A DNA stretch of 64,000 nt from Patellaria atrata CBS 101060 (Eukaryota). The notes below the pieces were generated by a model. That model saw nothing but the letters and a program-made list of their open reading frames with translations, ran no database searches and had not been told where the DNA came from. How positions within the stretch are numbered: position 1 is the stretch's first letter; each line of letters starts with the position of its first letter. Shown in pieces: positions 31,600 to 58,051 of the stretch. Location: NCBI GenBank assembly GCA_010093705.1, contig MU006089.1, positions 1,242,455 to 1,306,454 of the forward strand, given 5' to 3'. The translations under genes were made by a program, and so were the position numbers.

Positions 31600-31718
31600 T
31601 GTCACGATGCCCCCGATTTTATACCTGATATAATACATCCAACAGTTGCTTTCCATTTCTTCGAACCTAGTTAACTATCTCTGCACACTCCTAGTAACCT
31701 ACCACTCTTTACTTAATC

Positions 31719-33956
31719 ATGGCTTCTCCTATTACCATCAACGGAAATTCTCTTAATCCCAGTGCCCCCGGTATCCGTGCCTTTGGACTGGAGTCTGATG
31801 ATGCTGCTTCTTCCAACTATATTCTGATTCAAACCGATGGGCCCTTAAGGAAGGCTCAGAAAGAAGATCTCAAAGCTAAAGATGTGGCCATCCACGAGTA
31901 CGTTAGTGAGAATACGTATCTATGTGGCTACAAACCCGAAGACCTCGCTCCCATTCGCGAGCTACCTTTTGTCAAGTACGCAAACGTATACCAACAGACA
32001 TTTGTCGTACAACCAGATCTACGGACCCAACAACTAAGTCCAACTGAATCACTCCTCAATCAAGCTACTACACATTCACGTACTCTACAGACAGTCGATG
32101 TAATCTTTCACCATGACATTGATCCAGACTCGTGCGAAATCAGGAGCGAGCTTGCAACAGCTGCCCGTGCTGATCCAGATGATATCACTCTCACCTCGAA
32201 GAAAGCTCAGCTTTCTGTACAAGAACAGTATCTCGACGATATTGCTGCCATCGACGGTGTATGCTTTATCAAAGCGGTACATGCTAAAAAGCTTCGCAAT
32301 AACATCGCCCGTGGAATTCTCAACGCCGATGTTATCATCAATGACACTCCTTATAAGGGAGAGGGCCAGGTAGTATGTGTTGGCGACACTGGTTTCGATA
32401 CTGGAGACACCGAGAACCCACATCCTGCTTTCACCGGTAGAGTGAAGAAGCTCTATGCACTTGGCAGACCCAACAAGTCCGATGATCCGGATGGGCATGG
32501 AACTCATGTCTGCGGTTCTGTGCTTGGAGATGGAATTTCTAAAACCATGGGCGTGAGTCCCGAATTCAAGATCGAAGCTCCTGCCTCAAAGGCCACCCTT
32601 GTGGTGCAGAGTCTTTTGGACAGAAATAACGGATTGGGTGGTATTCCTAATGATCTTGAAGGTACGTATACCGAAACTTCTTCATCCTGATTGATATATT
32701 CTATGTAAATTTTATTTCTTTTTTTTTTGTTGGTATACTATGCATCGGTTACACTCCCTTTATTGCACAACTTACTGTGTGATTCAAAGGTTCGTACACT
32801 TCAAGTATACTAAGTGTGAATAGATCTCTTCCGTACGCCCTATGAAAAAGATGGGGCTCGTATTCATACCAACTCTTGGGGATCTGGCGGTAACAGTCAA
32901 CTCCCATACGATGGCTCAAGCATTGACATCGATAAATTTGTCTACGAACACCCAGATATGGTCATTCTCTTCGCGGCTGGCAACGATGGCAAAGATGCTG
33001 ACAACAACGGGATTATCGACCGCGCCCAAATTGGCTCAGAAGCAGCATCCAAGAATTGCATCACTGTTGGTGCTACTGAGAATGACCGCCCTGACATCGC
33101 TACGACATATGGCCAATTTGGCTATTCAGCACAGCCACTTTTCTCTGACAAGATCAGCACATCATCTGAAGGTATGGCTGCTTTCAGTTCTCGTGGTCCA
33201 ACCAAAGAGAAACGCATCAAACCAGACGTTGTTGCTCCTGGCACTGGTATCTTAAGCACCCGTTCCCGCCGGACGGGCGAAGCATCTCCTATATATGGCG
33301 TTAGCAAAGACAAAGAGTGGATGTTTCTTGCCGGGACCAGCATGGCCACACCGCTCGTCGCAGGATGTTGTGCCGTAATCCGTGAGACCCTCGTAAAGAA
33401 TGGAACAGAGAAACCTTCTGCTGCTCTGATCAAAGCACTCTTGATCAACGGTGCTGATGATGTTGAGGGCCAATATGTCCCTTCAGAAGCAGGTCCATCC
33501 CCAAACATCAACTCTGGCTTCGGCCTCGTCAACGTCGCTGGTAGCGTCATTCTCCCCGGTGACGCCAACGGTGGCTTTGGTGACTCTGAAAAGCCACTCG
33601 ACGACGAAGAGGAGTTCGAATTCACCATCGACGTCCCCAGTTCAGACTCTACCACGCAAATCAACGGCACCAGCACCTCGCCAAAAGCTACACCTACCAA
33701 CAAGACTCTTAAAGTCACGTTGGTCTGGTCAGATCCTCCAGCTGCGGCTCTCCAAAGCGATCTTGATCTCACTGTTATTGCAGGTGGTAAAGAGAGGCAT
33801 GGGAATATGGGCACAAAGAAGACCTTTGATCGTATCAACAATGTTGAGAGGGTCTTTTGGGTTAATGTACCAGCTGGTGAGGTTAAGGTAAAGGTGAGCG
33901 CGTATCGTATCACTACCACACCTCAGCACTTTGCTTGGGCTTGGAAACTTTATTAG
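31719..33956 (+). CDS. Subtilisin-like S8 serine protease (KP-43-like), no obvious signal peptide
   Basis: Exons 31719-32661 and 32824-33956. Catalytic Asp VCVGDTGFD, His DGHGTHVCGSVLG, oxyanion FAAGNDG and Ser AGTSMATP. Also ARIHTNSWG and a C-terminal beta-barrel (LKVTLVWSDPP...NNVERV). Confidence 0.95.
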
Positions 33957-36288: not shown

Positions 36289-37081
36289 TCAATGAAGCTC
36301 ATTCAGAGCATTCTTCCGGATCCTGCTCCCCTTAATGTTTCCCTCCACCCATTTTTCCACTCTGGCCATAGTATCTTGATCCTTAGGCTCTCCGCCAGCA
36401 TTCTTAATAGTAGCAAAACCAGGAGGGGGTCTATATAGCTCTCTTCCCGACTGCACAATGATATTGGAGCCTGTCATGAGGCTACAATGTTCTTCTTCTT
36501 CTTCTTCTTCCTCAACAATTTCCCTTAGTGGATCTCCAACCTTGCCTCCGTAATCCTTAGGCTCACGCCCCATAAGACGCTCGAATGTGCTTATACGGTA
36601 TCTGGCTTGCTCCCGATAATGTGCCATGCGGCTGGGATGTATGTTCGTTACTGCTGCTTTTGTTCCGCGCTTCCAAATTCTCATCTGTTCTAACTTAGCA
36701 TATACAATGAGAGAAGAACGGTTTATGATCATATTGCTCACCTCAGTACACATTTTACGGCAGTTGGCACAGTTGACGTCAGGCCTTTCGAACTGATCTG
36801 CAGACGGTATAGGCATATCGGGGTTCTTTCGAAAGGTAGTCACTTCGCCCTCGACTGACACGCCTGGTGGTTCAGGCTTGTCGTCAATGTTATTGAGCTC
36901 GACAAACCATCTGCTGAACTTAGAGAGACGTTCGGCCTTTTCACACTGCAAAACTTTGTCAGTGTATCCACATTTGGAAACGAAACGGGAGCAATATCAT
37001 GATTAGTACCTCCCACGCAGTTTCCTCACACTTTTCGCATTTGGACTTTAGGTTTGACTGGGTAAATTCTGAATGAGACAT
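36289..37081 (-). CDS. Hypothetical protein with CxxC motifs
   Basis: ATG 37081 (MSHSEFTQSNLKSKCEKCEETAWE) splices via GTACTA...CTGAC..CAG into the 220-aa ORF (CEKAERL...CANCRKMC...). A second in-frame intron is possible at ~36743-36687. Confidence 0.6.
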
Positions 37082-38481: not shown

Positions 38482-40351
38482 CGTGTCGTTCTCTCGTAGG
38501 ATTGAAATATTTCACCGCCTTAATTTTGTCGACGTACGCTCATGTGCGATAGGTATACAGTTGGAACTACAGTAAAGTCAGTTTCTGCCGCTTATATGTC
38601 ATCATACTCAAGGTCTACTTAGGATACAGAGGGAAACATGAATAACTGAGCTATCAATAGCAGAATAAGTTACAGTGTTCTACTCCGTCAAATTGTTAGC
38701 TTAACTGCAGCTCATCTCCGTACGATTTGACCATACAATCATTTCTTAGAACTAGGCCGGGGTATATTGTAAAGAGTGACCTTAATACTCTTCCAAAAGT
38801 ACCTGTAAGAGCATTTAGAAAGTTTTATGTCTTGCCAATATGTTATCTATTTATGTCTTTAGCTCTGGAAACGCTTGGTGAGCTCTCGGTACGAGGATAG
38901 GTGAAAGTGCGACAAGGGGTACTTCATAACGCTCTCAACGGGTGCAAACAACTTCCAATTGCTGCGTTTGAGCTTTCAGTTCCATTCAACGAGATTTCAG
39001 CGAAAATACATGATGAAAGTTCACTTCACTTTAGTATGAACGGCTATAGTATCCTATACATACGAAGAGATTCCCCTCCGTAAGTGAATTCTCCAGCTAC
39101 AAACATCTCCATAGCAACAAATTACTGCTCCGGAAGAGGTGTTTATAACAGAGATCGATCTACTCCTGAATCACAATGAACTCCTCCGAACAATCATTAA
39201 GAAGGATTTATCCCCGGCCTTGAACAAGATCTGGGCCTGGATAGTCCCATCTAAAGGTATGTCCGTACGTAAAGCCGTGAGACCAAAAGCGAAGAAAACG
39301 TGGATATCGGGATGGAAGAGCTCGTACCGCACCCAGCAGTCGAGAAGTGTAGCCAAGTCACAGTCAGGAGCCATATGAAGGTGAAACCGTTGGGGGAGCC
39401 CGTCCCATAAGGAGACGTTGGAGATTATAAAGAGGCAGATTTATTTTGGAGGTTTTTTTTGAATATACAAAGAAATATTTTTTCGCTCTTAAGTGTTTAG
39501 ACGGCCGTGAGAACCTTTAAGCGTATAATGATTCGAAAACGCCAACGTAGAATGGAGTATGATGAATGAAACAGCACACGCCACATTGTAGCTTACCAGA
39601 GGTTAACTGTGCAGATGATCACACCCTCCATATACTGGTACAATGTACGTTTCTTTTAACTCTCGCTTGCCGGAATGTCTAATCTGTTTGTGCGGTTAGT
39701 TATCATAGTCTTAGGCCGGATTTGTATGGTTCCGGTACTGTCAACCATCTCTTAAACACGACCTTGATTCAGCCAAACGTCTGGCGAGATCCTCATACTT
39801 GGAACCCTTGATTGCCGCTAGTATTTTGTCGCTAACTCCTCCGGCTAAGTGTACAAAATGGAAGACTATGCACTTTAGCATTTATCTGATCTGCCCGATT
39901 GTATCGTCTAAGTCGGAGAAACTTGAAGATATGCCTAACAGGTAATCTACAAAATCAAACTGATTTCTGATTTAGTATTATTCAGTACAGAATAGTTTCG
40001 AGCAACGGTAGTAGTAAAGGATGACGGTTCAGTTTGAATATCTTACTTGATAGGCTGGGGTGAACAGCCCCTCATCTGCAGCTATTCCAGGCAACATAGG
40101 TAGTTATACAGTACCATGTCCATGTAGCTTGATGGGAGGCCGGATGAAGTCAAGCGCTTTTTCAGGAGACGGCAGCTATGTCCTAGGGGTTTTCACCGGA
40201 CGGGCTGGAAAGGTTAGGTAACTTCACGAATGTGCTTGAGGATGCCATCCATACTTTAAGGATCTTCCATCCTCAGGCTATTACACCGCTAGAGGCGGTC
40301 AACTCGACTGAAATTCTTGAATATCACGAGGCTCTTCGCCCGAAACCGAAC

Positions 40352-40931
40352 ATGCCTCCACAGCGGATTAACACAGCATCCTCATCTGGTACTGAAGGAA
40401 GGGAGTACTTGTTGAGGCGCGTGCAGCAGAGCTTCAAATTTCGGGCTGAAGCAGAACCTGAGGAAGACCCAAAACTGCAACAAGTGAGAATATCCGCCTA
40501 TAGGTTAGAGAGAAAATGGCCCCGCCTGAAAGAATTACTTGAAAAATGGTTTCAAGGCGTTGAATTTGAAGAGAAACTGGTAAGCATAATTCTATCGGAC
40601 TGCATCTTTCAGTTGGATAATCGCCCAACGTAATGCTGACAAGTTCTGGCGTTAAGTCTATCAAAAGAGACGAATACATCATCGAAATTGAAAAGCCTCT
40701 AACCCAGGTAAGGTCTTATTAGTTCTTTGGGCATCCAGTATTTCCTGACGCATATTTTGTTCCAAGGCACAGCTGGACGAGATCCAAAAGCTCCGGACAG
40801 AACCTGAGCCTGGTGGCCAGCAGACTGGTCCTATTGCTCCTCCGACTGAACTACCAGAACCTCCAGAAGAGGATGATTCCGACGATGATACGGTAGCTGG
40901 TGCTGCTAATGCGGCGCAGAACAGCACATGA
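40352..40931 (+). CDS. Small (~147 aa) hypothetical protein, first gene of the triad
   Basis: Exons 40352-40579, 40657-40707, 40767-40931, all in frame with GT-AG introns and CTGAC branch sites. Compact domain WPRLKELLEKWFQGVEFEEKLSIKRDEYIIEIEKPLTQAQLDEIQKLR plus an acidic tail. Confidence 0.72.
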
Positions 40932-41252
40932 GCTGGTGAAGTGTCTGATTTCATCTCATTTGTATTGAGGCGCAGGGTATGGATGGTGGTGGGAGTCGCC
41001 TAAGGGTCAAGGGGGTCATCGCGACCCGAACCATCACTGCCACTGGCAGCATACCCCTGGGAATTCCGTGAGGCTGACTCCGGAGCGATATGGAGGGCAG
41101 TGCAGCATTTAGATATATACTCACAGTGATGCTTACTGTAGCTTGGAGTTCAACATAGTCGTCCTCTGTTTACGGGAGTTTAGTTAAAATTATCGCGCTA
41201 TTTCATCGCTGAAAGGCTTGTTTTATCCACCTTGGCGTCACTAGTTCTAATA

Positions 41253-43221
41253 ATGGGGTCATTGCGGCTCTCGGATGCGTTCAAGGCCTCCTACAATGAC
41301 CTCGACTCTTACCCTTTGAATATTATATCTCAAGCGACATATCGTGGATTTCTTCGTGCTTATACTGAGAGGCTTGCGGCTGCTTCATCCAAGTTATTTG
41401 CCAGTGACAATGGCAAGATCTACGTCCCGTTCCGCGATCTCTTGCCAGTGCATAAAGGTAAATAGCACCAAGATAATGGAAGGAAACTCTGCTAACCATC
41501 ACAGGATTCGAAAGACTCGAAGCTACAGACGACCAGTCACTGAAAAGCCGTCTTGGTGATCAATCGATGACCGATGTCACAACAGGACATACTACCGGAG
41601 CGATCGCAACGAAATGCGATCCCAGATGTCGGTTCATGCATGTCTCTCGACAATTCCCTCATCATAACTCTTTCAAATTGCGCATGTTCCGTTGCTAATT
41701 TGCCAATTACTGTAAATAGATTCTTGCAGGCCGACAATGCTCGAGAACCCCTCAACCTCACGAAGCGGATGTTCGTGAGGATTATGAGCTATCATCAAGT
41801 CATGCCACAGTATTTGGACTTGGTTGCGTTATTTGGTTCCCGTATAAGGGACCGTGACCGACGGTTCAGTAGTTTCCGCGACTATACAACTCTACAAAAT
41901 GCGCCCAAAGGAACCTCGATGCAGGATTTAGCCCGTAGCGGGAGGCAATTCCAGCTATGCTACAATTTGAAGGCAATCAATTGCATTTCAGATGAGAATA
42001 CCAGCCCGGAACTCAAACAATGGTCTGTTCGGCAAGGGGCATTTCTGCATCAATTTGATGTTGAGCTAGGAACTACACTATGGATCGTCACAAAAGGCAA
42101 ACCCGATCCTCGAGAGGGCAGACAAGACATCAAGGAACAAATCGAAGAACTCACAGGGCCAAAAGGAAGGAAGCAGGATAGATCATTCAAGTCTGCGGCC
42201 CAATCATTCAGGTCCAGTCTATCGGTCCATTTACTGTTCTGTTACTGGGCGATGCTTGACTGGCGTTGGTATATTCAATGTCTTGAAGAAAAAGTGGAGA
42301 ATAAGGTGAGTGAACCAACCCGTATCCTCTGCGATAGCTGACGTGAATTTACTTTAGACCGATAGCATTGTGCAAGAACTTCGATCTAACAAGAATTCTC
42401 GTCAAACGTACGCTTCCGAAGATCTGATGACTATCCAAGGATTTGAAGACGACATCAACGAAGCCATTATGATTATGGAGTCAAATAATGATACTTTGAG
42501 CTCCCTGCAAGCATACTACGAGAAACTGCTGAAACACAAGCATTTCCCATCCGAGTTGCTGACCGAGTGCCTTGACGATGTTCAACTTTTCGCAACTCAG
42601 ATCTCTGGTATGATCCACGATGCAAAAATGCACATATCACGCGCACGCCTGCTCCTGAAGATCGCTGATGATCGTAAAACAATTGTAAGAATTCTACGGC
42701 AATGCACGACCTCCTTTCCTGAGTCTGACCATTTACAGCTTATACAACATCTTCAATCCCAGACTACTGAGAAAATGGAGTCCCTTAACCAGGGAATGTT
42801 TGGTATAGGAGTTCAGTCTCAGAAAGATACCGTTGCTATGCGCATTGTCACATTCGTAACTCTGATCTACCTCCCGGCAACCTTCGTCTCAGTGAGCGAT
42901 CCCAACAACCACTTAATTCGCATACTAACAGAAATTCAGACATTCTTCAGTACAGACGTCGTAAAGTACCAACCCCCCGATAACAGCCCAGTGGTGACCA
43001 ATGCGACCTTTTCGACGCCAGCGTTTCAAGGGTCTTATTCGAGCATAGCCCTAAACAGATGGCTGCAAGTCACCCTTCCGTTGACCATGATCACACTTAT
43101 GGCAGCTGTCCTTTGGTACAGAATAGACTCCGGGAAGAGACAGAAGATCTGGATACAGATCGCGAAAGGTGAGAATCGGGAGAATCTTTTACCACTCTAC
43201 ACTACTGTCAAGGAGAAGTGA
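41253..43221 (+). CDS. CorA-like membrane protein (fungal divergent type, lacks GMN motif)
   Basis: Introns 41458-41504, 41638-41719 (GC-AG), 42306-42357, 42685-42738, 42892-42939. N-terminal DPRCRFIFL...SYHQVMPQYLD...FG, a long helical stalk, and a C-terminal TM pair MRIVTFVTLIYLPATFVSTFFSTD...WLQVTLPLTMITL. Confidence 0.85.
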
Positions 43222-44130
43222 GCAGTCGGTGTTGCAGGTTTTTCTTCACTCAATCTCGCATTGGGAAACTTGAACATGGAAAAGCTATCCGAGCTATTTC
43301 ATCCGCCGATGGTTCTACGACGACCAAATCATTAGGTCTCTCCGCTCGCGTTCCGTGGCCCTCCCTAAGGTCTACACAACCGGTACTGTTGGTTTGTAAC
43401 TTCGTAACGCATTGGGAGCAGTTGCTATGGGACCCAGTATATGGAGCTAAAAACCTAAACCGACCCAAGTATCGCAGATTCCGAGCTTCGGTTGATGTTC
43501 AGGGGCTAGGGGGCCGTCAACGGAACTAATCGGTCTCCATATTCCTGTAGAAGCGATTTAGATCGGAGAGTGAGGTGAGTGGAATTTGTTAACGAGAGAT
43601 TTGCATCTTGTAATATATATGGTTGGAATGCGGAGCTCTTGGACTGTGATATAGTTGTAGTATAAATTGTCTCCTCCCCACCTCTGTGTCGCGCCCGTCT
43701 TCTCTCATGGATATCCAACAAGGCTACACTAAGCCTTGTTAGATACGTCTCGCGCTAAACTGGATATATACACCTTCGCCACCCCCATTGCAGATGATGG
43801 ATGGCCGCCCTTCCACAAGGCTGGACGGGAAGGGATGGAGCTGACCCACCACCTTGCACCATGTTCGGGGCGGATCGCCTCGAGAAGCGGTCGCCTGTTG
43901 TGCAAGTATAATAACTCTTGGACTCGCTGCCTTGTGAGGTTCTGCAATCTAAAATCGTTCTTGCAACTGTAATATGCGATCCTAATGTCTCTTTCTGTAT
44001 TATTACACCAAAGTTATCATTGACGGAGCATTATTATATACAACATCCTTCCTTTGCACTAGGCTCGCAAAGAGCCGCAGTGAGCTCCCTAGTTCTGCCT
44101 TATTAGTTTTACCCCGCAAGGCTCGTCGTC

Positions 44131-47100
44131 ATGGCGGCTCAACCTCAAGTTCAAGTCGCGCGTAATACCTCAGATGGCTCCATCATCGACGAACTAAGAC
44201 GCAAATTAGAAGAGCTCACATTAACCGGACATTGTGGACGACCGTTCATTCGTGTCGAGGAGCTTAGGAACTGGCTCTTGAGCGGGCCAACCCCAGATAT
44301 CGAGCAAAGCCGGGCTTCGAGATTGCTCTGGTTCGCATACAAAGCTCGAAACTTGACCAATCTTCCGAAAAACATACAGCAACTATGCAATCGTTCCAAA
44401 GGATGTCTGGTCCTGCTTTGCATTCTTACCCGGATGGGTCATCCACACCTGCTGGACGGATTCATCAGACGAGGCATCGTCGACGAGCAGCTACCCATGC
44501 GACTGACAGATCTTGAGACGGAAACCGAAACTATGCGCATCGAAAAAGGCGTAGAATTTGCCAAAACCTTCGACGAGCTCCAATGGCAATTCTTTCCTGT
44601 CAAATTCGACCTGAACATGGGCCTCGAGCTTCAGCAGAAACACGTGGTACCGGTTTGCAAAAGAATCATTATAACAGATAAGGGAGGAACTGCCGTGCTT
44701 TACCAACTTGAAGTCCTTGAAGAATTCGTCGCGGAGGACATGAGAAAGAAGCTTATAAATGCTAGATTCAAGGACAGAAATGATGGATTAGGATATGTAT
44801 GTCTCCTCACTCACGTCCATCGCAATTTTAGTTAATATTAGTGTAGCGATACGCTTTCGCATTGAAGTCTTTCAAGGAGGGTAATAGGGATGTTTGGTTG
44901 AACGAATGTGAATCCTTCTGGGGCTTGAGAGAGCACGATGGGATGGTTCGCTATCTAGGCAACTTCAGCCATAGAGAACCACGCCCGGAAGAAGACACGA
45001 CCGAAATGACATTCAATATACTACTTGAATACGGTGACTTCGATCTGGAAGATTATCTCTATGGAACTGCTCAACCAATCTTCCCTTGGGAGATTATAAA
45101 TTTTTGGAAGTCATTATTCGATGTTGCGGATGCGGTTGAGGGTATCCATAATCTCAAAATTCCAAACGGTTCTGGGGGATTTCGAAAATATAATGGGTGG
45201 GTCCTAAAATACATGATAAGGAAAATGTGACTGACTAGCCAAGGTGGCATGCCGATATCAAGCCCGACAATATCCTCAGTGTGCGCGGAACGTTCAAACT
45301 AGCTGACCCCGGATTTGCTAAATTCCAGAAGCATACCGGAAAAGAAGCAACAGAGATGATCTTAGGTGGCACACAAACATATGGTATGTATCATCTTATC
45401 AACGCATGGGCTCCGTTGACACCCTCTAGGCGCCCCCGAGCGAAATCCAGATAGGCGTGGTACCCTTTCAGAGGTGTCTCAAAAGATTGACACCTGGTCT
45501 CTAGGCTGTGTCTTCTCTGAAGTTGCTACTTGGGTCATTTTGGGGTGGCAGGGAGTCTTGCAATTCAGAAGGCTGAGGAAAAACGCAACCAAAGCTATCA
45601 TGGACTCCCGTAAACACGCATCCTTAAAACGGATCCATCGCCTCAAAGCTGGCGATTACTTCCATGATGGTAGGGATGTGCTCGAGATTGTAAAGAAATG
45701 GCACGAAACATTACGTCGACTCTTGCGGATGGGCACTACGGATCCCATCACCATCCAAGTTTTGGATCTCATTGATTCGAAAATGCTTGTTGGCCCTCCC
45801 GCTGAGAGGAAGCGGATAGAGGATATTTGCAAAGACCTTCGCGACATAGAGCGTACCACATCGGAGCCTCCATTAGAGCTTCCTGATGGTATTATGGAAG
45901 CTTTAGTTGAGATGGATGCAGCGGCACCGGCACACATTGCCTCGGAGAAGCGTCGAAGTGGGATTGGTGTTTTGCAACACCATCAAACTCATGGATCACT
46001 CACTATCGCTGAAGAACGAGAAGCTCGCAAGTCTAAGATGCTCGGGGAGCCAATGATGAAAACGGCCCATCGTTCAGAATACCGCAAAAGTGCAATTACC
46101 CGCCTTGCGCCAACTATCGAAGTAGAGGGAGGAGTACCGTTGTATGAAAGCCCTGTTGAGGATTTGGAGGGAGACGATGGTTTGAAGATATCGATGGATC
46201 CGTCGACACCGGCGAAAGCTGCACCCATGCGAAAGAAGGGTGGCCTTTCTCCACCACCACCATTACCACACTCGCCGCCAGAACTATCCCGCGAACAGTT
46301 CACTTCGGAGTCACAGTCGGAGCCACTGATAAGGACAGTAACAAGACGACCTAGGCCGGCAAGACGAAGGACGACTGTCTCCCAAGATGTTTTTCAAGCA
46401 CGCGAGGAAGTGGAAAAGCGTGAGAAAGGGAATGTCTTCAGAAAAACCCGAAAAGATCAGCTACTCTCCGGGCATTTCAAGCATCGAGATATTGTAAGTG
46501 CTCATACTGTTTTGCCACATATTATTTCTAATAAATCGCAGAAATTTCTCGTCGACAATGCAGAGTCCATGAAGAAGCATTGGTATGAGGCGAAATACTT
46601 ACTGGAGACGCTTTTGATGAAGGCCGCGGGCCAAGACGATGATGGCGCAGATATGAGCTTTACAGTAGGCAACTGTCAAGTAAAAGGCAAGAAAGACAAA
46701 AAGGAATTTATGAAGGCAATGAACGTCGCATCACCTACAGAAGGCCATAATACGGATATGAAGATGGCACTTGGCGAGATTTTCAACGACTACTTGAATC
46801 AGCTAAAGACCCACAAGAAATTTCCTCATCTTCCAATGAAGAACCTCACGTTGATCGTATTCACGGACGGTATCTGGGCTGGAATGCGCAACAAAGAAGA
46901 CGTCTTCCATAAAATAGTCGCCTTTGTTCGAGAAGTAGATGAGATTGGTGGTAAAATGAAAGAGAGGCCGGTGAGCATTGAGTTCATCCAATTCGGCGAC
47001 GATGCGGACGCGACACATCGGCTTCGTCGTTTAGATGATGATATGCCGTGGCATGGCGTACGGTAAGTTTTCCGTTCAAGTTACGTCGTACAATGTAGAT

Positions 47101-47441
47101 GCTCATGCTCTTCTAGGGATATCGCCGATACTGAGCATTCCAAGGGCGACATCATCAAAATGCTTCTTGGTAGCTTCGTTGAGGAATATGACATGCAGGA
47201 TGAAGCCGAGGAAGCTGTAATCAATAACCCTTTCGATGCAATACCACAGCTCAATCGTGCCTCAACGTTTGGGACGATACCAATGGTGCCTCACGGAGCT
47301 TTACAGATTCCAAGGACACCGGATCCGAACGGATCGCACATATCAATGACGGGGCAGATGTTGAATGGAGGCAGGCCGGAGTCTTCATACTACGCCTACG
47401 ATCCGGCTTCAAGTGATCTGGGGTCAAGGAGACTACGCTGA
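44131..47441 (+). CDS. Ser/Thr protein kinase fused to a C-terminal vWA domain
   Basis: Introns 44797-44846, 45197-45243, 45384-45429, 46494-46541, 47063-47116. Kinase motifs FALK, HADIKPDNIL, LADPG, GTQTYGAPE and DTWSLGCV. vWA motifs FLVDNAESM, TDM, LIVFTDG and IEFIQFGDD. Confidence 0.9.
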
Positions 47442-48859: not shown

Positions 48860-50802
48860 ATGGGTTTTGTGCGATGCTGCGTGCTTGCCTTGTCCCTAGC
48901 CGCAACTTTTACGAAAGGTGTGAGCGCAGAGGATGTGCTATATAGCCGGAGATCGTCGCTGCAGAAGAGAGGTATCGATGCGGATGGGAATTACAATATC
49001 TGTATTACTCCTAATTCCTTGCGGAAAGAGTCTTGTGCAGTGTACAGGAACTGACAAGTGCAGCATTCTTCCATATCAACGACGTGCACGCACATCTGGA
49101 TGAGTTCAGTTCCTCAGGCACCGATTGCACGAGGCCGGAGCGCGGATGTTACGGTGGATACGCTCGTGTCAAATCCGTGATTGATGCGCAAAGGCCCCAG
49201 TATAACGACAGTCTGTTTCTCAACGCCGGCGATGAATTTCAGGGCACGTTGTTCTATACCTACTACGGCGGTGAGAAGATCGCTGAGACCCTCAACCAGC
49301 TGAACTTCTCCGCTATGACATTGGGAAACCATGAGTTCGATGATGGCGATGATGCACTGGGTGCTTTCTTGGAGAACCTTACGTTCCCAATTATTAGTGC
49401 AAACATCCAATCCACTCATCCAGTGCTCAACCGGACTATTAAGGCGTTCCACATCTTCGAGGAGTACGATCTAGCTGTCATCGGAGTAACGACCGAAGAG
49501 ACATCTAACATTGCAAATCCTGGTGAAGGCACGACCTTCAGTCCGGTGGTTGAAGCCGTGCAAAACACCATCGACTTCATCCATGAGACCACTAACATCT
49601 CCCGTATCGCAGCTCTCACTCATATTGGATACGAAGAGGATCAAGCTCTTGCTGAACAAACCAAGGGTCTCTACCTCATCATGGGTGGACACAGTCATAC
49701 CAATCTTGGCGACTCTGAAGACGCAGAAGGACCATATCCGACTATCGTGGAGAATGCAGACGGAGAGGAAGTCTTTATCGTGACTGCATGGCGATGGGGC
49801 CAGTATCTAGGCTACATTGATGTGACATATGACCCGGACGGCAAGATCCTAGCATACCACGGCGGACCCATCGAGTTGAATAACCAGACGGCTCAAGATC
49901 CAGACCTTCAGGCACAGATTGATGAGTGGCGTGTTCCGTTCGAGGAGTTCGCTGCCGAGGAGCTAGGCACATCGCTCTCGGTCCTCGACCAATCTACTTG
50001 CCAGGAACGAGAATGCACTCTCGGTAACTTCATGGCGGATGCTATGCTTCAGTATCGCTTGAATCTCACTAATGAGGTCGATTTTGCGCTAATCAACGCG
50101 GGAGGCATTCGTGCAGAGATTGACGAAGGTCCCATAACGCGTGGAGAAGTGTTGACCGCGTTCCCTTTTGGCAATGCGATTGTAGATCTGACCTTCTCCG
50201 GCGATGAAGTCTGGGATATCCTCGAAGGTATCATTTCAGGTGTGAACCTGAACAACGGCGAGGAAGTCACAAGTTTCTTCCAGGTTTCCCGCGGCATCGA
50301 AATCGAATACAACCCCGAGAACGGAAACGGTTCGAAACTGGTGAGCGTGAAGATTGGTAACGAGACACTAGATCGCGAAGAGGAATACACAATCGTGACA
50401 CTCGATTTCTTGGCTGGAGGTATGTTGCCCGCCAAATATGATTATGTCCCATCCCCAATCCTGGAAAGTCTCAATATCCTACTAACTCGCATACCAGGCG
50501 GTGACAATTTCTTCACCACCGAAACCGAGTTTGCTTCGTTAGGCACTCAGGACGAAGTCCTCGTTGATTATATCCGTTCCCAGACTCCCGTGAACGTGAC
50601 GCTAGAGGGTCGTATTCGCGTCGTCAATGGCTCTGCTGAAGACCCACCGAGCTCGACGTCCAGCCCAACAGGCACAGAGACAGGATCGCCGACCTCGACT
50701 GAGAGCGCTGGCGAGCCGACAGACACCGGTGCTGCAGGAACATTGGGGGTCTCGGTAGGAGTGGTGGCGGGTGCTGTTCTCGCGGCGTTGGCGGCGCTGT
50801 AG
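48860..50802 (+). CDS. Secreted, probably GPI-anchored 5'-nucleotidase/apyrase (calcineurin-like metallophosphoesterase)
   Basis: Signal peptide, introns ~49001-49063 and ~50420-50497. Motifs HINDVHAH, NAGDEFQG, LGNHEFD, GGHSH and INAGGIR. Ser/Thr-rich stalk and hydrophobic C-terminal tail. Confidence 0.95.
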
Positions 50803-55838: not shown

Positions 55839-58051
55839 TTAGCCAGTATGATAGTGCGCAACTCCCGCACCCTGCATCCGGTATAATAGTGATTGAGTGT
55901 CAGGGCTCAGCGAGACGCGAGGAGTCTGCGCGTGGGCAACGTCACCGCGGATAAGGGCTTGAATCCAAAGGAAATTTTTAAGAGTATCTAGGGGTATGAT
56001 TAGTGGATGAAATATCGACATGAAAAACGAGATATAAGGAGACGTGAAATAAAGCGAATACGGTATAGGAGGGGTGGAAACTGGGAATGACAGAGGATAG
56101 AGCTCAGTGGGTATTCGAAGTGAGGATAAACATACGCTGAAAGTCATCGAACCACACCAAACCAATGCTAAACGCGAACCGTAATATCTCCGCCAGGAAG
56201 AATGTTCGCTGAACTTGGTGCCGAGCCGACGCGAGAGAAGTGAGGAGGCTAAAGTGGGCGATAGAGTGAGCTTCTGCAGTTTCTCCCAATGGAGTAAAGG
56301 GCTGGAGGAAGGTTGTACGTACACCCAACAATAAACCCATGGGATCCCGGCCCAGGTTTCCACTGGGCCTCGTAGCAAATGAAATAAGGCCTCGAGTTCC
56401 GTCTCATTATGATTGTCATCATGAGGGAAACCCCATCCAGTGCCTCTGATATGTATTGTTGCTGCTAACCTCACGCATTCCTCGATAGTCTCTCTTCTGG
56501 AATATTGAGATGCGTTAGCCCTTCCTCTTGTACCTGCAGCGGCCCGTCCAAGCGCGTCGAGTCGCTGCATAGCAGACTCGCGGAACCGTGTACCAACGCT
56601 ATGGCCAAGGTATTCGCTTTCCTTAATCTTAGTTGCGGAGAAGGTAATATTAAGGATCTCGATGGTCGAGCAGGAGATATTAGTGAACGTGTCGAGTAAT
56701 TCGAAAGGCTCGCGAAGGAACAATGGGGAACTAGTAAAGAAAGTCGATACGTCCGACGAAGGTTGCGCGCGAAGAGTAGGATTTGAAGTAGATGTGAAGC
56801 CTGGTAACTGGAAAGTTGATACAGAATTTATCATATCTAACCTGTAATCACAAAATTAGTGCATGGACAAACGATGAAAGCGAAGCGGCTCACATTAGGA
56901 TAGTATCATGGAGGTTGGGGCTTGAAATTGCATCGATGCCACCGCGCATACTGACCATTTGGGCTAGACCCATCAGATGCGTCTGTGCGGTTTTTTCACC
57001 TTGTACGAGCTGTTGAATTGTGTTAGCTAAATGTTTAATGAAATGATTTCTATGCCGCTCACTTCAAACCCTCCCAAAAAAAGAACAGTTGCCAACACAT
57101 CGTCATCAGGCAATGTTCCAGCACTCCTTAACTTTTCATTCAATGCTTGGATAGCATGAGCCTTGTAATGAAGGAGATTCTCCTGAGAAATCAAGGGTAG
57201 TTGAAGCATTGGCGTGTATTGTCCGCTAGAACAGAGGCAGATCGCAAGAATAAGGGCGGGATTAAACGGAGAATTATTGAACCAATATTTTATAGGGGCG
57301 ATACGACTAGCCTTTACTAACGCAAAAGGAAGGGATAGATATTGCGCATCTACAGAGTTAAATAATTACGGTGAAGCGATGCGGAGGCTTGAACTCAACT
57401 TACATTCATCGACACGGCGAACAACCTCAGCCCAGAGTTTGTGGGAGTTTTCAGACGGAGTTTTCAAGATTGATCCAAGATTGCAAATAGTGTAAGGTTC
57501 GTCTTCCGGAAGCGTTAGAAACGAAGGTTCATAACTCTGCACCGGCCAAGCTCGTTCGCCGACTTCTATATCTACAGAGAGGTCCTCCGGAGTTTGACCA
57601 GATAGCATTAGGGATGGAATTACGTGTCGTTTGTTTTGGGTAGAAATATCGTTTGCTCGACTCTTCGAGTCCTGACTAGCCATTGGAATCATGAGACCGT
57701 AAGGAAAGTATCCTTCATCTGATGATTGACGGGTTGGAGTGAGTGATGGACTAACAGGTGTGCGTCGTCTTTTACGATCCTGGCCGTTGGAATGTGATGG
57801 TGATGCTGCTGGAGAGTATGGAGATGATGGAGTCTCCCAAATTAGGTTGCCTTCGCTTACAGGTTAGACACAGCAACATGACAAATGCTAAAAGACGACT
57901 TACTACCTGCTGATCGCGCCTCCCTCTCCCGCCTTCGATAATCTCGCATGACTTGAGAACGGATGGTTCGTCGTTGCTCTGAATCTTTCCCTAAGCCGGA
58001 TGGAGAGTGATTTACGAAAGCGAAGTCTTTTGGACTAGACATTGTTAACAT
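55839..58051 (-). CDS. Fungal-specific transcription-factor-like protein, multi-exon
   Basis: N-terminal FAFVN...RRTIRSQVMRDYRRRER motif and the middle-homology-type segment YKAHAIQALNEKL...DDVLATVLFLGGFE. Later exon ECVRLAATI, with GT-AG introns between the ORF pieces. Confidence 0.75.

Follow-up and report, generated by a model that had tools for sequence, protein, structure and literature searches.

Results

Gene content of the locus

A stretch of 64,000 nt from contig MU006089.1 of Patellaria atrata CBS 101060, referred to here as the window, was analyzed. Between positions 40352 and 47441 it carries three neighboring genes, all encoded on the plus strand, for a small soluble protein (gene 1), a CorA-fold membrane protein (gene 2) and a protein kinase joined to a von Willebrand factor A (vWA) domain (gene 3), and these three genes are the subject of this work. 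Gene 1 (40352..40931) encodes 147 amino acids (aa) in three exons, located at 40352-40579, 40657-40707 and 40767-40931. Gene 2 (41253..43221) encodes 559 aa in six exons, located at 41253-41457, 41505-41641 (or -41631), 41730 (or 41720)-42305, 42358-42684, 42739-42891 and 42940-43221. The alternative exon ends belong to one intron with two equally good placements, 41642-41729 or 41632-41719, and the difference between them amounts to two residues. Gene 3 (44131..47441) encodes 1021 aa in six exons (44131-44796, 44847-45196, 45244-45383, 45430-46493, 46542-47062 and 47117-47441), separated by five introns with GT..AG ends.

The exons were rebuilt from the sequence and checked by script. Two sequencing runs (X1 and X2) each contained the stretch as a single DNA contig with no joints, and both may be the source of the assembly. 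The frames of all three genes were open, every intron was 46-88 nt long with GT..AG ends, and the intergenic gaps measured 321 bp between genes 1 and 2 and 909 bp between genes 2 and 3. A preliminary description of this locus, made from the sequence alone, had reported three intact and co-oriented genes with clean splice sites, gaps of about 320 and 910 bp, and a start of gene 1 at 40352. The layout was borne out by the rebuilt exons, and the start by homologous open reading frames (ORFs), which begin at an aligned Met. Homologue alignments span all of genes 2 and 3 (41253-43149 and 44173-47225), and the splice junctions of gene 3 agree with the Peltula protein P0001 (homologous database proteins are given by P numbers and metagenome loci by L numbers).

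The rebuilt models of genes 1 and 2 differ from the public ones. Over a 192-aa exon, gene 2 matches P0028, a database protein of Patellaria atrata CBS 101060, with 100% identity. This public model (531 aa, window 41571-43221) has another N-terminus and retains two in-frame introns, one of them within the first transmembrane helix (TM1). The N-terminus of the rebuilt protein, M-G-S-L-R-L-S-D-A-F-K-A-S-Y, agrees with the family consensus, and Teloschistes P0017 omits exactly the 18 residues of one of the two in-frame introns. The public model of gene 1, P0087 (346 aa, window 38861-40931), has extra upstream exons for which there was no homologue support and leaves out the 17-aa exon, which is conserved in 8/9 loci. 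The rebuilt models of both genes, rather than the public ones, are supported by the homologues.

Gene 2 encodes a CorA-fold protein without the GMN motif

The protein encoded by gene 2 has two hydrophobic segments, residues 446-470 (TM1) and 507-528 (TM2), and it is the only one of the three proteins with transmembrane helices. P0028, all 60 matches listed in the gene 2 search and the matches of a further search with P0035 carry Pfam PF26616, 'CorA-like transporter domain', a membership that rests on precomputed annotation, the Pfam copy scanned here being one without that model. With P0035 as the query, the PF26616 relatives numbered 284 proteins at E<=1e-30, and 120 of these were listed. The named relatives among those listed were all from Pezizomycotina, several species having two or three paralogues. 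Literature searches, which had subscription journals and supplements outside their reach, found no published function for the PF26616 family.

The structure of P0033, a homologue with 53% identity, was modeled with 42 aligned sequences (predicted local distance difference test (pLDDT) 84.1, predicted template modeling score 0.76). The model shows an alpha/beta N-terminal domain, long stalk helices and two C-terminal transmembrane helices. When it was used as a query in Foldseek, the top matches were all Thermotoga maritima CorA, with E-values of 1e-9 to 1e-7 and a probability of 1.00. Compared with T. maritima CorA, P0033 reached a template modeling score of about 0.5-0.58 on the target at about 10% identity.

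The end of TM1, Y-L-P-A-T-F-V-S-T-F-F-S-T-D, is encoded at 42868..42957 and is split by a 48-nt intron (42892-42939). TM2, beginning W-L-Q-V-T-L-P-L, is encoded at 43060..43131 and corresponds to helix 479-520 in the P0033 model. In CorA proteins, the sequence G-M-N at the end of TM1 is the signature of Mg2+ selectivity. At this position gene 2 has S-T-D (42949-42957), and the column counts over 42 family members were S 39, T 41 and D 40, while G-M-N was found at the end of TM1 in none of the 42. The Pfam model of the CorA family, PF01544, did not match the window exons at E<=0.1 and scored 18.4-26.4 bits in the homologues, below the gathering cut-off of 27 bits. The gene 2 family therefore resembles the CorA/MIT superfamily, as represented by T. 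maritima CorA and PF01544, in the fold of the whole chain and in the P-x-T-F at the end of TM1, but differs from it in having S-T-D in place of G-M-N, in an identity of only about 10% and in a PF01544 score below the cut-off. The gene 2 protein is also about 200 residues longer than CorA and has a longer loop between TM1 and TM2. Its N-terminal domain has invariant His, Cys and Asp positions. Judged by sequence and model, the gene 2 product may work like, or descend from, a CorA-type channel, although it is without the motif that defines Mg2+ channels. Gene 2 is a member of the PF26616 proteins of Pezizomycotina, a family whose definition does not extend to a linked small gene upstream or a linked kinase-vWA gene.

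Gene 3 encodes a non-RD kinase with a vWA domain

The gene 3 protein opens with a region that belongs to no known family. A protein kinase follows, and a linker of low conservation connects it to the vWA domain, behind which the protein ends in a tail. Its homologues are about 1000 aa long; 27 matches were obtained, the best with 45% identity, and identities were 41-46% over nearly the full length. They occur in lichen-forming fungi, Pseudogymnoascus and other Leotiomycetes, Coniosporium, Endocarpon and some Sordariomycetes. Mean identities between the window protein and 12 homologues were 33.5% for the N-terminus, 50.3% for the kinase, 32.3% for the linker, 52.0% for the vWA domain and 18.5% for the tail. 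The N-terminal region (residues 1-215, 44131..44775) had no Pfam match and no match by sequence in the PDB, and the corresponding region of the homologue P0009 resembled only unnamed Ascomycota clusters in the Atlas.

When the single exons of the window were scanned with Pfam, the only match was Pkinase, with 26 bits, in exon 3 of gene 3. A Pkinase match was found in all 22 aligned homologues, with one Pkinase stretch per protein. The catalytic loop is H-A-D-I-K-P-D-N (45248-45271), with HAD in place of HRD, so that there is no Arg before the catalytic Asp, and the pattern in the family is G-W-H-[AG]-D. The sequence also reads D-P-G (45305-45313) in place of D-F-G, and the glycine-rich loop, K-G-G-T-A, is atypical. 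The catalytic residues of gene 3 are K229, H341/D343, K345, N348 and D360. The VAIK Lys, the alphaC Glu, the His and Asp of HxD, the Lys and Asn of the loop and the Asp of DPG were invariant in 22/22 homologues, and the kinase is therefore probably active. On the same alignment, the non-RD state is a trait of the whole gene 3 kinase family. Among solved structures, the profile of the kinase family matched TTK/Mps1 best, with an E-value of 2e-14. This likeness is limited to an alignment in the region of the C-lobe, and the fungal family differs from TTK/Mps1 in its HAD and DPG motifs, its own N-terminal region and its vWA domain.

The vWA domain is encoded at 46542..47225 (residues 741 to about 950), with an intron at 47063-47116. 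The predicted fold of residues 741-913 (173 aa) of the window protein had a pLDDT of 92.7, and its top Foldseek matches were only vWA domains, namely those of ANTXR1, CMG2, factor B, integrin I and Rpn10, with a best E-value of 1.6e-5. The Pfam VWA model matched 5/22 homologues at E<=0.01 and did not match the exon of the window itself. In a residue comparison, four of the five positions of the metal-ion-dependent adhesion site (MIDAS) were kept in the window protein (D745, S749, T811 and D849). Over 26 sequences, the first Asp was present in 26, the first Ser was replaced by Ala or Gly in 25, the following Ser/Thr was present in 26, the Thr in 25 and the last Asp in 25. The assignments of the preliminary description, a CorA-like protein, a non-RD kinase and a vWA domain, thus agree with the CorA fold, the HAD kinase and the vWA fold found here.

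In P0041 of Cudoniella acicularis (1542 aa), ankyrin repeats were found at residues of about 1360-1485, the position of the vWA domain, and the C-terminal binding domain of this kinase family is therefore exchangeable. Between the kinase and the vWA domain, the linker (window 45900-46500, residues about 546-735) contains short stretches that are conserved throughout the family, with the consensus sequences A-R-K-S-x-L-L-x-x-P-L-M-K-T-A-H-R-S-E-x-L-K-S and P-Q-D-V-F-Q-A-R-E-E. By their sequence, these stretches look like short linear motifs or docking sites.

Linkage of the CorA-like gene and the kinase gene

Metagenome contigs were scanned with the kinase alignment, which gave 54 loci, and near-identical loci were merged. 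Inclusion required a kinase of family level and at least about 2.9 kb of upstream DNA, which left 13 distinct loci; those that were too short or matched only at the level of the kinase domain were excluded. One more distant kinase group (L042/43/45, 29% identity), which is without the N-terminal region, was kept apart from the 13 and had no CorA-like gene. A CorA-like gene was located upstream of the kinase gene in 10/13 distinct loci. In eight of them (L004, L007, L008, L015, L022, the L024 group, L029 and L034), a complete CorA-like gene was found 0.6-1.3 kb upstream on the same strand, and in the two others (L003 and L027) it was upstream of the kinase on the opposite strand.

The same arrangement was seen in named genomes, where the homologues of genes 2 and 3 were adjacent or near in 5/6 pairs from the same assembly. 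Consecutive locus tags, with contigs of equal length for both proteins, were found in Peltula (M1816_005081/82), Polycauliona sp. 2 (Q9169_002521/22), Pseudogymnoascus VKM F-4513 (V494_04413/14) and Claussenomyces (M1818_002194/93), and in Oculimacula the tags of the CorA-like gene and the kinase gene were three apart. In Coniosporium the two genes were not adjacent, and the CorA-like protein there is perhaps a paralogue.

Five annotated proteins of 1390-1654 aa (P0007, P0017, P0081, P0075 and P0041) join a CorA-like part with a kinase that follows it. A true fusion was rejected for P0007 and P0017, in which both transmembrane helices of the CorA-like protein are absent, and is doubtful for P0081, which ends before TM2. 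These three are probably merged gene models. In P0075 from Cosmosporella and P0041 from Cudoniella the CorA-like protein is almost complete, and these two may or may not be true fusions. All five joined models still show that the CorA-like gene and the kinase gene are adjacent and share their orientation. In a tree of the kinases, linked cases fell on both sides of the deepest split and unlinked cases at four separate places, a pattern that fits an old linkage with later losses.

Conservation of gene 1

In the gene 1 protein of Patellaria atrata, a basic N-terminus rich in Ser and Thr precedes a conserved core, and the tail is acidic; there is no hydrophobic segment. The protein matched no Pfam family at E<0.06 and no PDB sequence at E<0.25. 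When its 76-aa exon was searched as a single sequence against 1.84 billion representatives, the model of the window itself was the only match, and the search of the Atlas returned nothing at 0.9 or above. That gene 1 is an orphan or no gene at all was nevertheless ruled out by counterpart ORFs upstream of the CorA-like gene in metagenome loci. The best tblastn matches of gene 1 in these loci were weak, but they lay repeatedly just upstream of the CorA-like gene and on the same strand.

A gene 1-like ORF was present in 9/9 distinct loci that could be assessed (the window, L003, L004, L007, L008, L015, the L024 group, L027 and L029); L022 and L034 were not assessable, the contig ending too early in both. 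In all nine loci the ORF was located 400-1050 bp upstream of the CorA-like gene and on the strand of the latter. The conserved order of the module is small gene, channel gene, kinase gene. The conserved core, encoded at 40499..40579 in the window, has the motif Y-x-L-x-W-x-K-L-K-x-[FWY]-L-E-x-K-[FW]-P...F, in which Y50, L59, L63 and F72 were invariant in 9/9 sequences. The regular expression of the core had no match elsewhere among 14,284 six-frame pieces. In leave-one-out searches with profiles built from the other eight sequences, the left-out ORF was the top match of its locus, with E-values of 2e-6 to 4e-17. For the window, the gene 1 ORF ranked first among 1699 six-frame pieces with an E-value of 1.4e-7, the next match having an E-value of 1.4.

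Exon 2 of gene 1 (40657..40707) encodes 17 aa that fit the pattern [DE]-x-Y-[IV]-x-x-[IVL]-P-E-x-L-[TS], and a regular expression for this pattern matched in 8/9 loci, each time in the interval that separates the core ORF from the CorA-like gene. The aligned Met at the start of the gene 1-like ORFs is followed by P-x-x-R-R-x-T, and 6/9 homologues carry an R-[RK]-x-[ST] site close to the N-terminus. In the inverted loci L003 and L027, the small gene was inverted together with the CorA-like gene. Since the small gene follows the channel gene in both inversions, these two genes are the tighter pair. The preliminary description had named the absence of linkage in other genomes as the finding that would speak against a module, and the module was not refuted by the 10/13 metagenome loci, the 5/6 named pairs and the 9/9 loci with gene 1.

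Genes flanking the cluster

When the flanking ORFs of 14 representatives were compared all against all, only the genes of the module were common to them, apart from one family (HET) in three loci. Counting all scans, HET-domain genes were found by Pfam within 10 kb of the kinase gene in 4 of about 13 distinct loci (L001:5558-7210(-), L008:207-2351(+), L013:1825-3074(-) and L015:985-3033(-)), and HET was the only flanking family seen more than twice. The other flanking genes were unrelated genes of housekeeping or metabolism and included YL1, PUF, GCN1-like, an FtsH-type protease, P450, MFS, SDR and transcription factors. That conserved synteny extends no further than the three genes points to selection acting on the cluster as such.

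In the window, the flanks had been described as decayed or non-coding. No long ORF was present at about 37.0-40.3 kb and 47.45-48.9 kb, and two ORFs scanned from these flanks had no Pfam match, while decay was not demonstrated. The nearest recognizable neighbors were a subtilase gene upstream (Peptidase_S8, split by an intron; window 31698-33956, plus strand) and a 5'-nucleotidase gene downstream (Metallophos and 5_nucleotid_C, with a hydrophobic C-terminus; window 49015-50802, plus strand), neither of which recurs beside the cluster in other loci. Long ORFs at window 36289-36996 and 55839-57863, both on the minus strand, had no Pfam match at E<=0.001. Among the loci with an unlinked kinase gene, the flanks of L031 (11021-13729) and L032 (16605-17426) contained LpxA-like and LpxC-like genes of lipid A synthesis, which are unexpected beside a fungal-type kinase gene.

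Discussion

An order of three genes that is kept while the surroundings change is strong comparative evidence for a joint function. To our knowledge, fungal gene clusters that persist across classes are rare outside secondary metabolism. Where such clusters are known, they mostly belong to cell-death or allorecognition pathways. The explanation we favor, to which we give somewhat better than even chances, is that the three genes are one conserved cassette of filamentous ascomycetes, a CorA-fold channel controlled by a kinase and accompanied by a small third protein. The physiological role of such a cassette may be stress or ion signaling, or cell death.

In the proposed mechanism, the channel would be a membrane oligomer oriented like CorA, its large N-terminal domain facing the cytosol. 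The kinase, predicted to be cytosolic, would act on the channel itself or control it by way of the small protein. The vWA domain, with its near-complete MIDAS, may hold a conserved endogenous partner, such as the cytosolic domain of the channel or the small protein; a partner of this kind is proposed rather than a variable foreign one because the vWA domain is as conserved as the kinase. The small protein, which is largely disordered, could be a regulatory subunit or a substrate of the kinase, and the system as a whole would bring about a controlled flux of ions or another membrane event.

Several observations weigh against one kinase-controlled channel unit. In three of the 13 distinct loci (L013, L021 and the L030-32 group), a sensitive profile search found no CorA-like gene within 10 kb of the kinase. 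CorA-like proteins also outnumber the kinase-vWA proteins (284 at E<=1e-30 versus 27) and occur as several paralogues per genome, so that many CorA-like genes may work without this kinase. With the loss of GMN, the gene 2 product could perhaps be no channel at all. The kinase tree was a quick, midpoint-rooted one with long branches, and the metagenome loci are not phylogenetically independent. Moreover, linked fungal genes can share their regulation without acting on each other.

The three rivals of this explanation are special cases or amendments of it, so that the probabilities given here overlap. Best placed among them is the proposal, made in the preliminary description, that the three genes form an immune or regulated-cell-death system. 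In such a system the kinase-vWA protein would sense a non-self or danger cue and open the CorA-fold protein as a lethal pore, with the small protein as adaptor, inhibitor or guard. The linkage upholds the module part of that proposal. For the immune mechanism there was no direct support, the proteins having no death or NLR domain and the vWA domain being conserved, and we regard it as a minority possibility and rather unlikely. A similarly low probability is given to a related version, an ancient three-gene death or alarm switch, in which a kinase with an exchangeable vWA/ankyrin domain would open a pore that is not selective for Mg2+, while a fast-evolving small protein would shut the pore or couple it to the kinase.

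Some features of the cluster would suit such a role. The Mg2+ filter has been lost, so ordinary Mg2+ uptake is unlikely; the vWA domain is swapped for ankyrin repeats in P0041; and the cluster was found in differing genomic contexts. The analogies to which the preliminary description appealed are also in print, as analogies and not as homology. Type III CRISPR is reported to use proteins of the CorA family as effectors in the membrane, and the CorA effector of a type III-B system is activated by SAM-AMP and encoded beside the proteins that control it (PMC10600005). The likeness to gene 2 lies in a CorA-family membrane protein that stands beside its controllers and acts as an effector, not as a channel for nutrients. 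That system is, however, prokaryotic and signaled by a nucleotide, and has no kinase, vWA domain or small protein; no sequence relation to it was found here, and gene 2 had no match in PADLOC. The matches in PADLOC (mad6, PD-T4-6, MkoA and Stk2) were obtained only through the generic kinase domain and were discounted as evidence.

A second parallel is offered by the wheat resistance proteins Lr9 and Pm57, which are reported to join a protein kinase to a vWA domain at the C-terminus (PMC10260399, PMC11153570). The wheat proteins have tandem kinases before the vWA domain, whereas gene 3 has a single kinase, and the two are likened by domain layout and not by sequence. The form of a small cluster is itself described in a review as typical of fungal death pathways (PMC12881547). 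Clusters of this kind, with two or three genes, combine an NLR with an amyloid motif and a HeLo/HELL protein, or a gasdermin and a protease. Like the present cluster, they are small groups of cooperating genes of filamentous ascomycetes and include a gene for a membrane-targeting protein. In contrast, no domain in common with them (NACHT/NB-ARC, HeLo/HELL, gasdermin or protease) was seen in the Pfam scans, in which amyloid motifs were not specifically searched.

More generally, Pfam scans of the window exons and of 22, 6, 6 and 9 homologues found no HET, HeLo/HELL, NACHT/NB-ARC, TIR, gasdermin or patatin domain in the three proteins, no search being aimed at amyloid motifs. The vWA domain is as conserved as the kinase (52% versus 50%), unlike a typical fast-evolving sensor. 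Orthologues with 40-55% identity hold the gene order across classes, a picture like that of vertically inherited genes under purifying selection. These fungi have a great many HET genes, and the presence of such genes no more than 10 kb from the kinase gene in 4 of about 13 loci, which could otherwise be counted in favor of an immune role, is only a weak hint. The available parts of one review and one survey of fungal cell-death/NLR effector domains do not mention CorA. If the death or alarm switch were nonetheless true, it would give the CorA effectors of prokaryotic defense a counterpart among eukaryotes and would be a second case of kinase-vWA immunity besides wheat.

Still less probable, in our estimate, is an ordinary unit of metal-ion homeostasis. 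Here the CorA-like protein would transport some divalent cation, but not Mg2+, and would be tuned to the supply by the kinase, whose putative metal-binding vWA site would be the sensor. The CorA fold, the PxTF of the CorA signature retained beside S-T-D, the four of five MIDAS metal ligands and the invariant His, Cys and Asp of the N-terminal domain of the channel are all consistent with such a unit, and the genes are conserved like housekeeping genes. The absence of GMN from all 42 members argues against it, as do the patchy-looking distribution among named genomes and the several paralogues per genome. In addition, we know of no role for such a small protein in the known CorA, Alr1 or Mrs2 systems. 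Ion homeostasis, if it proved to be the function, would represent a new way to regulate a CorA-type channel.

The least probable rival, which would make gene 1 a conserved upstream ORF or the 5' exons of the CorA-like transcript and the unit one of two genes, draws on the constant position of gene 1 on the strand of the CorA-like gene, always 0.4-1.05 kb upstream of it, and on how rarely gene 1 is annotated, only the model of the window being matched among 1.84 billion representatives; we consider it very unlikely, gene 1 having an aligned start Met and a stop codon of its own, three coding segments that are conserved and lie at intron-like gaps and, with 147 aa and introns, a size far beyond that of a typical upstream ORF, while the CorA-like proteins have a conserved start Met and N-terminus of their own in 15/17 annotated homologues.

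Within the reach of the literature searches described above, from which subscription journals and supplements were excluded, no published description of the three-gene cluster was found, and it appears to be undescribed. None of the three genes has a relative that has been studied. For PF26616, a family with hundreds of members, the cluster is the first context that can be tested, with a dedicated kinase and a small partner. If the kinase-controlled channel proposed here is indeed a kinase-gated pore, it would be a new type of effector in fungal signaling or immunity, and the parallel with the prokaryotic CorA effectors and the kinase-vWA receptors of plants would be open to experiment.

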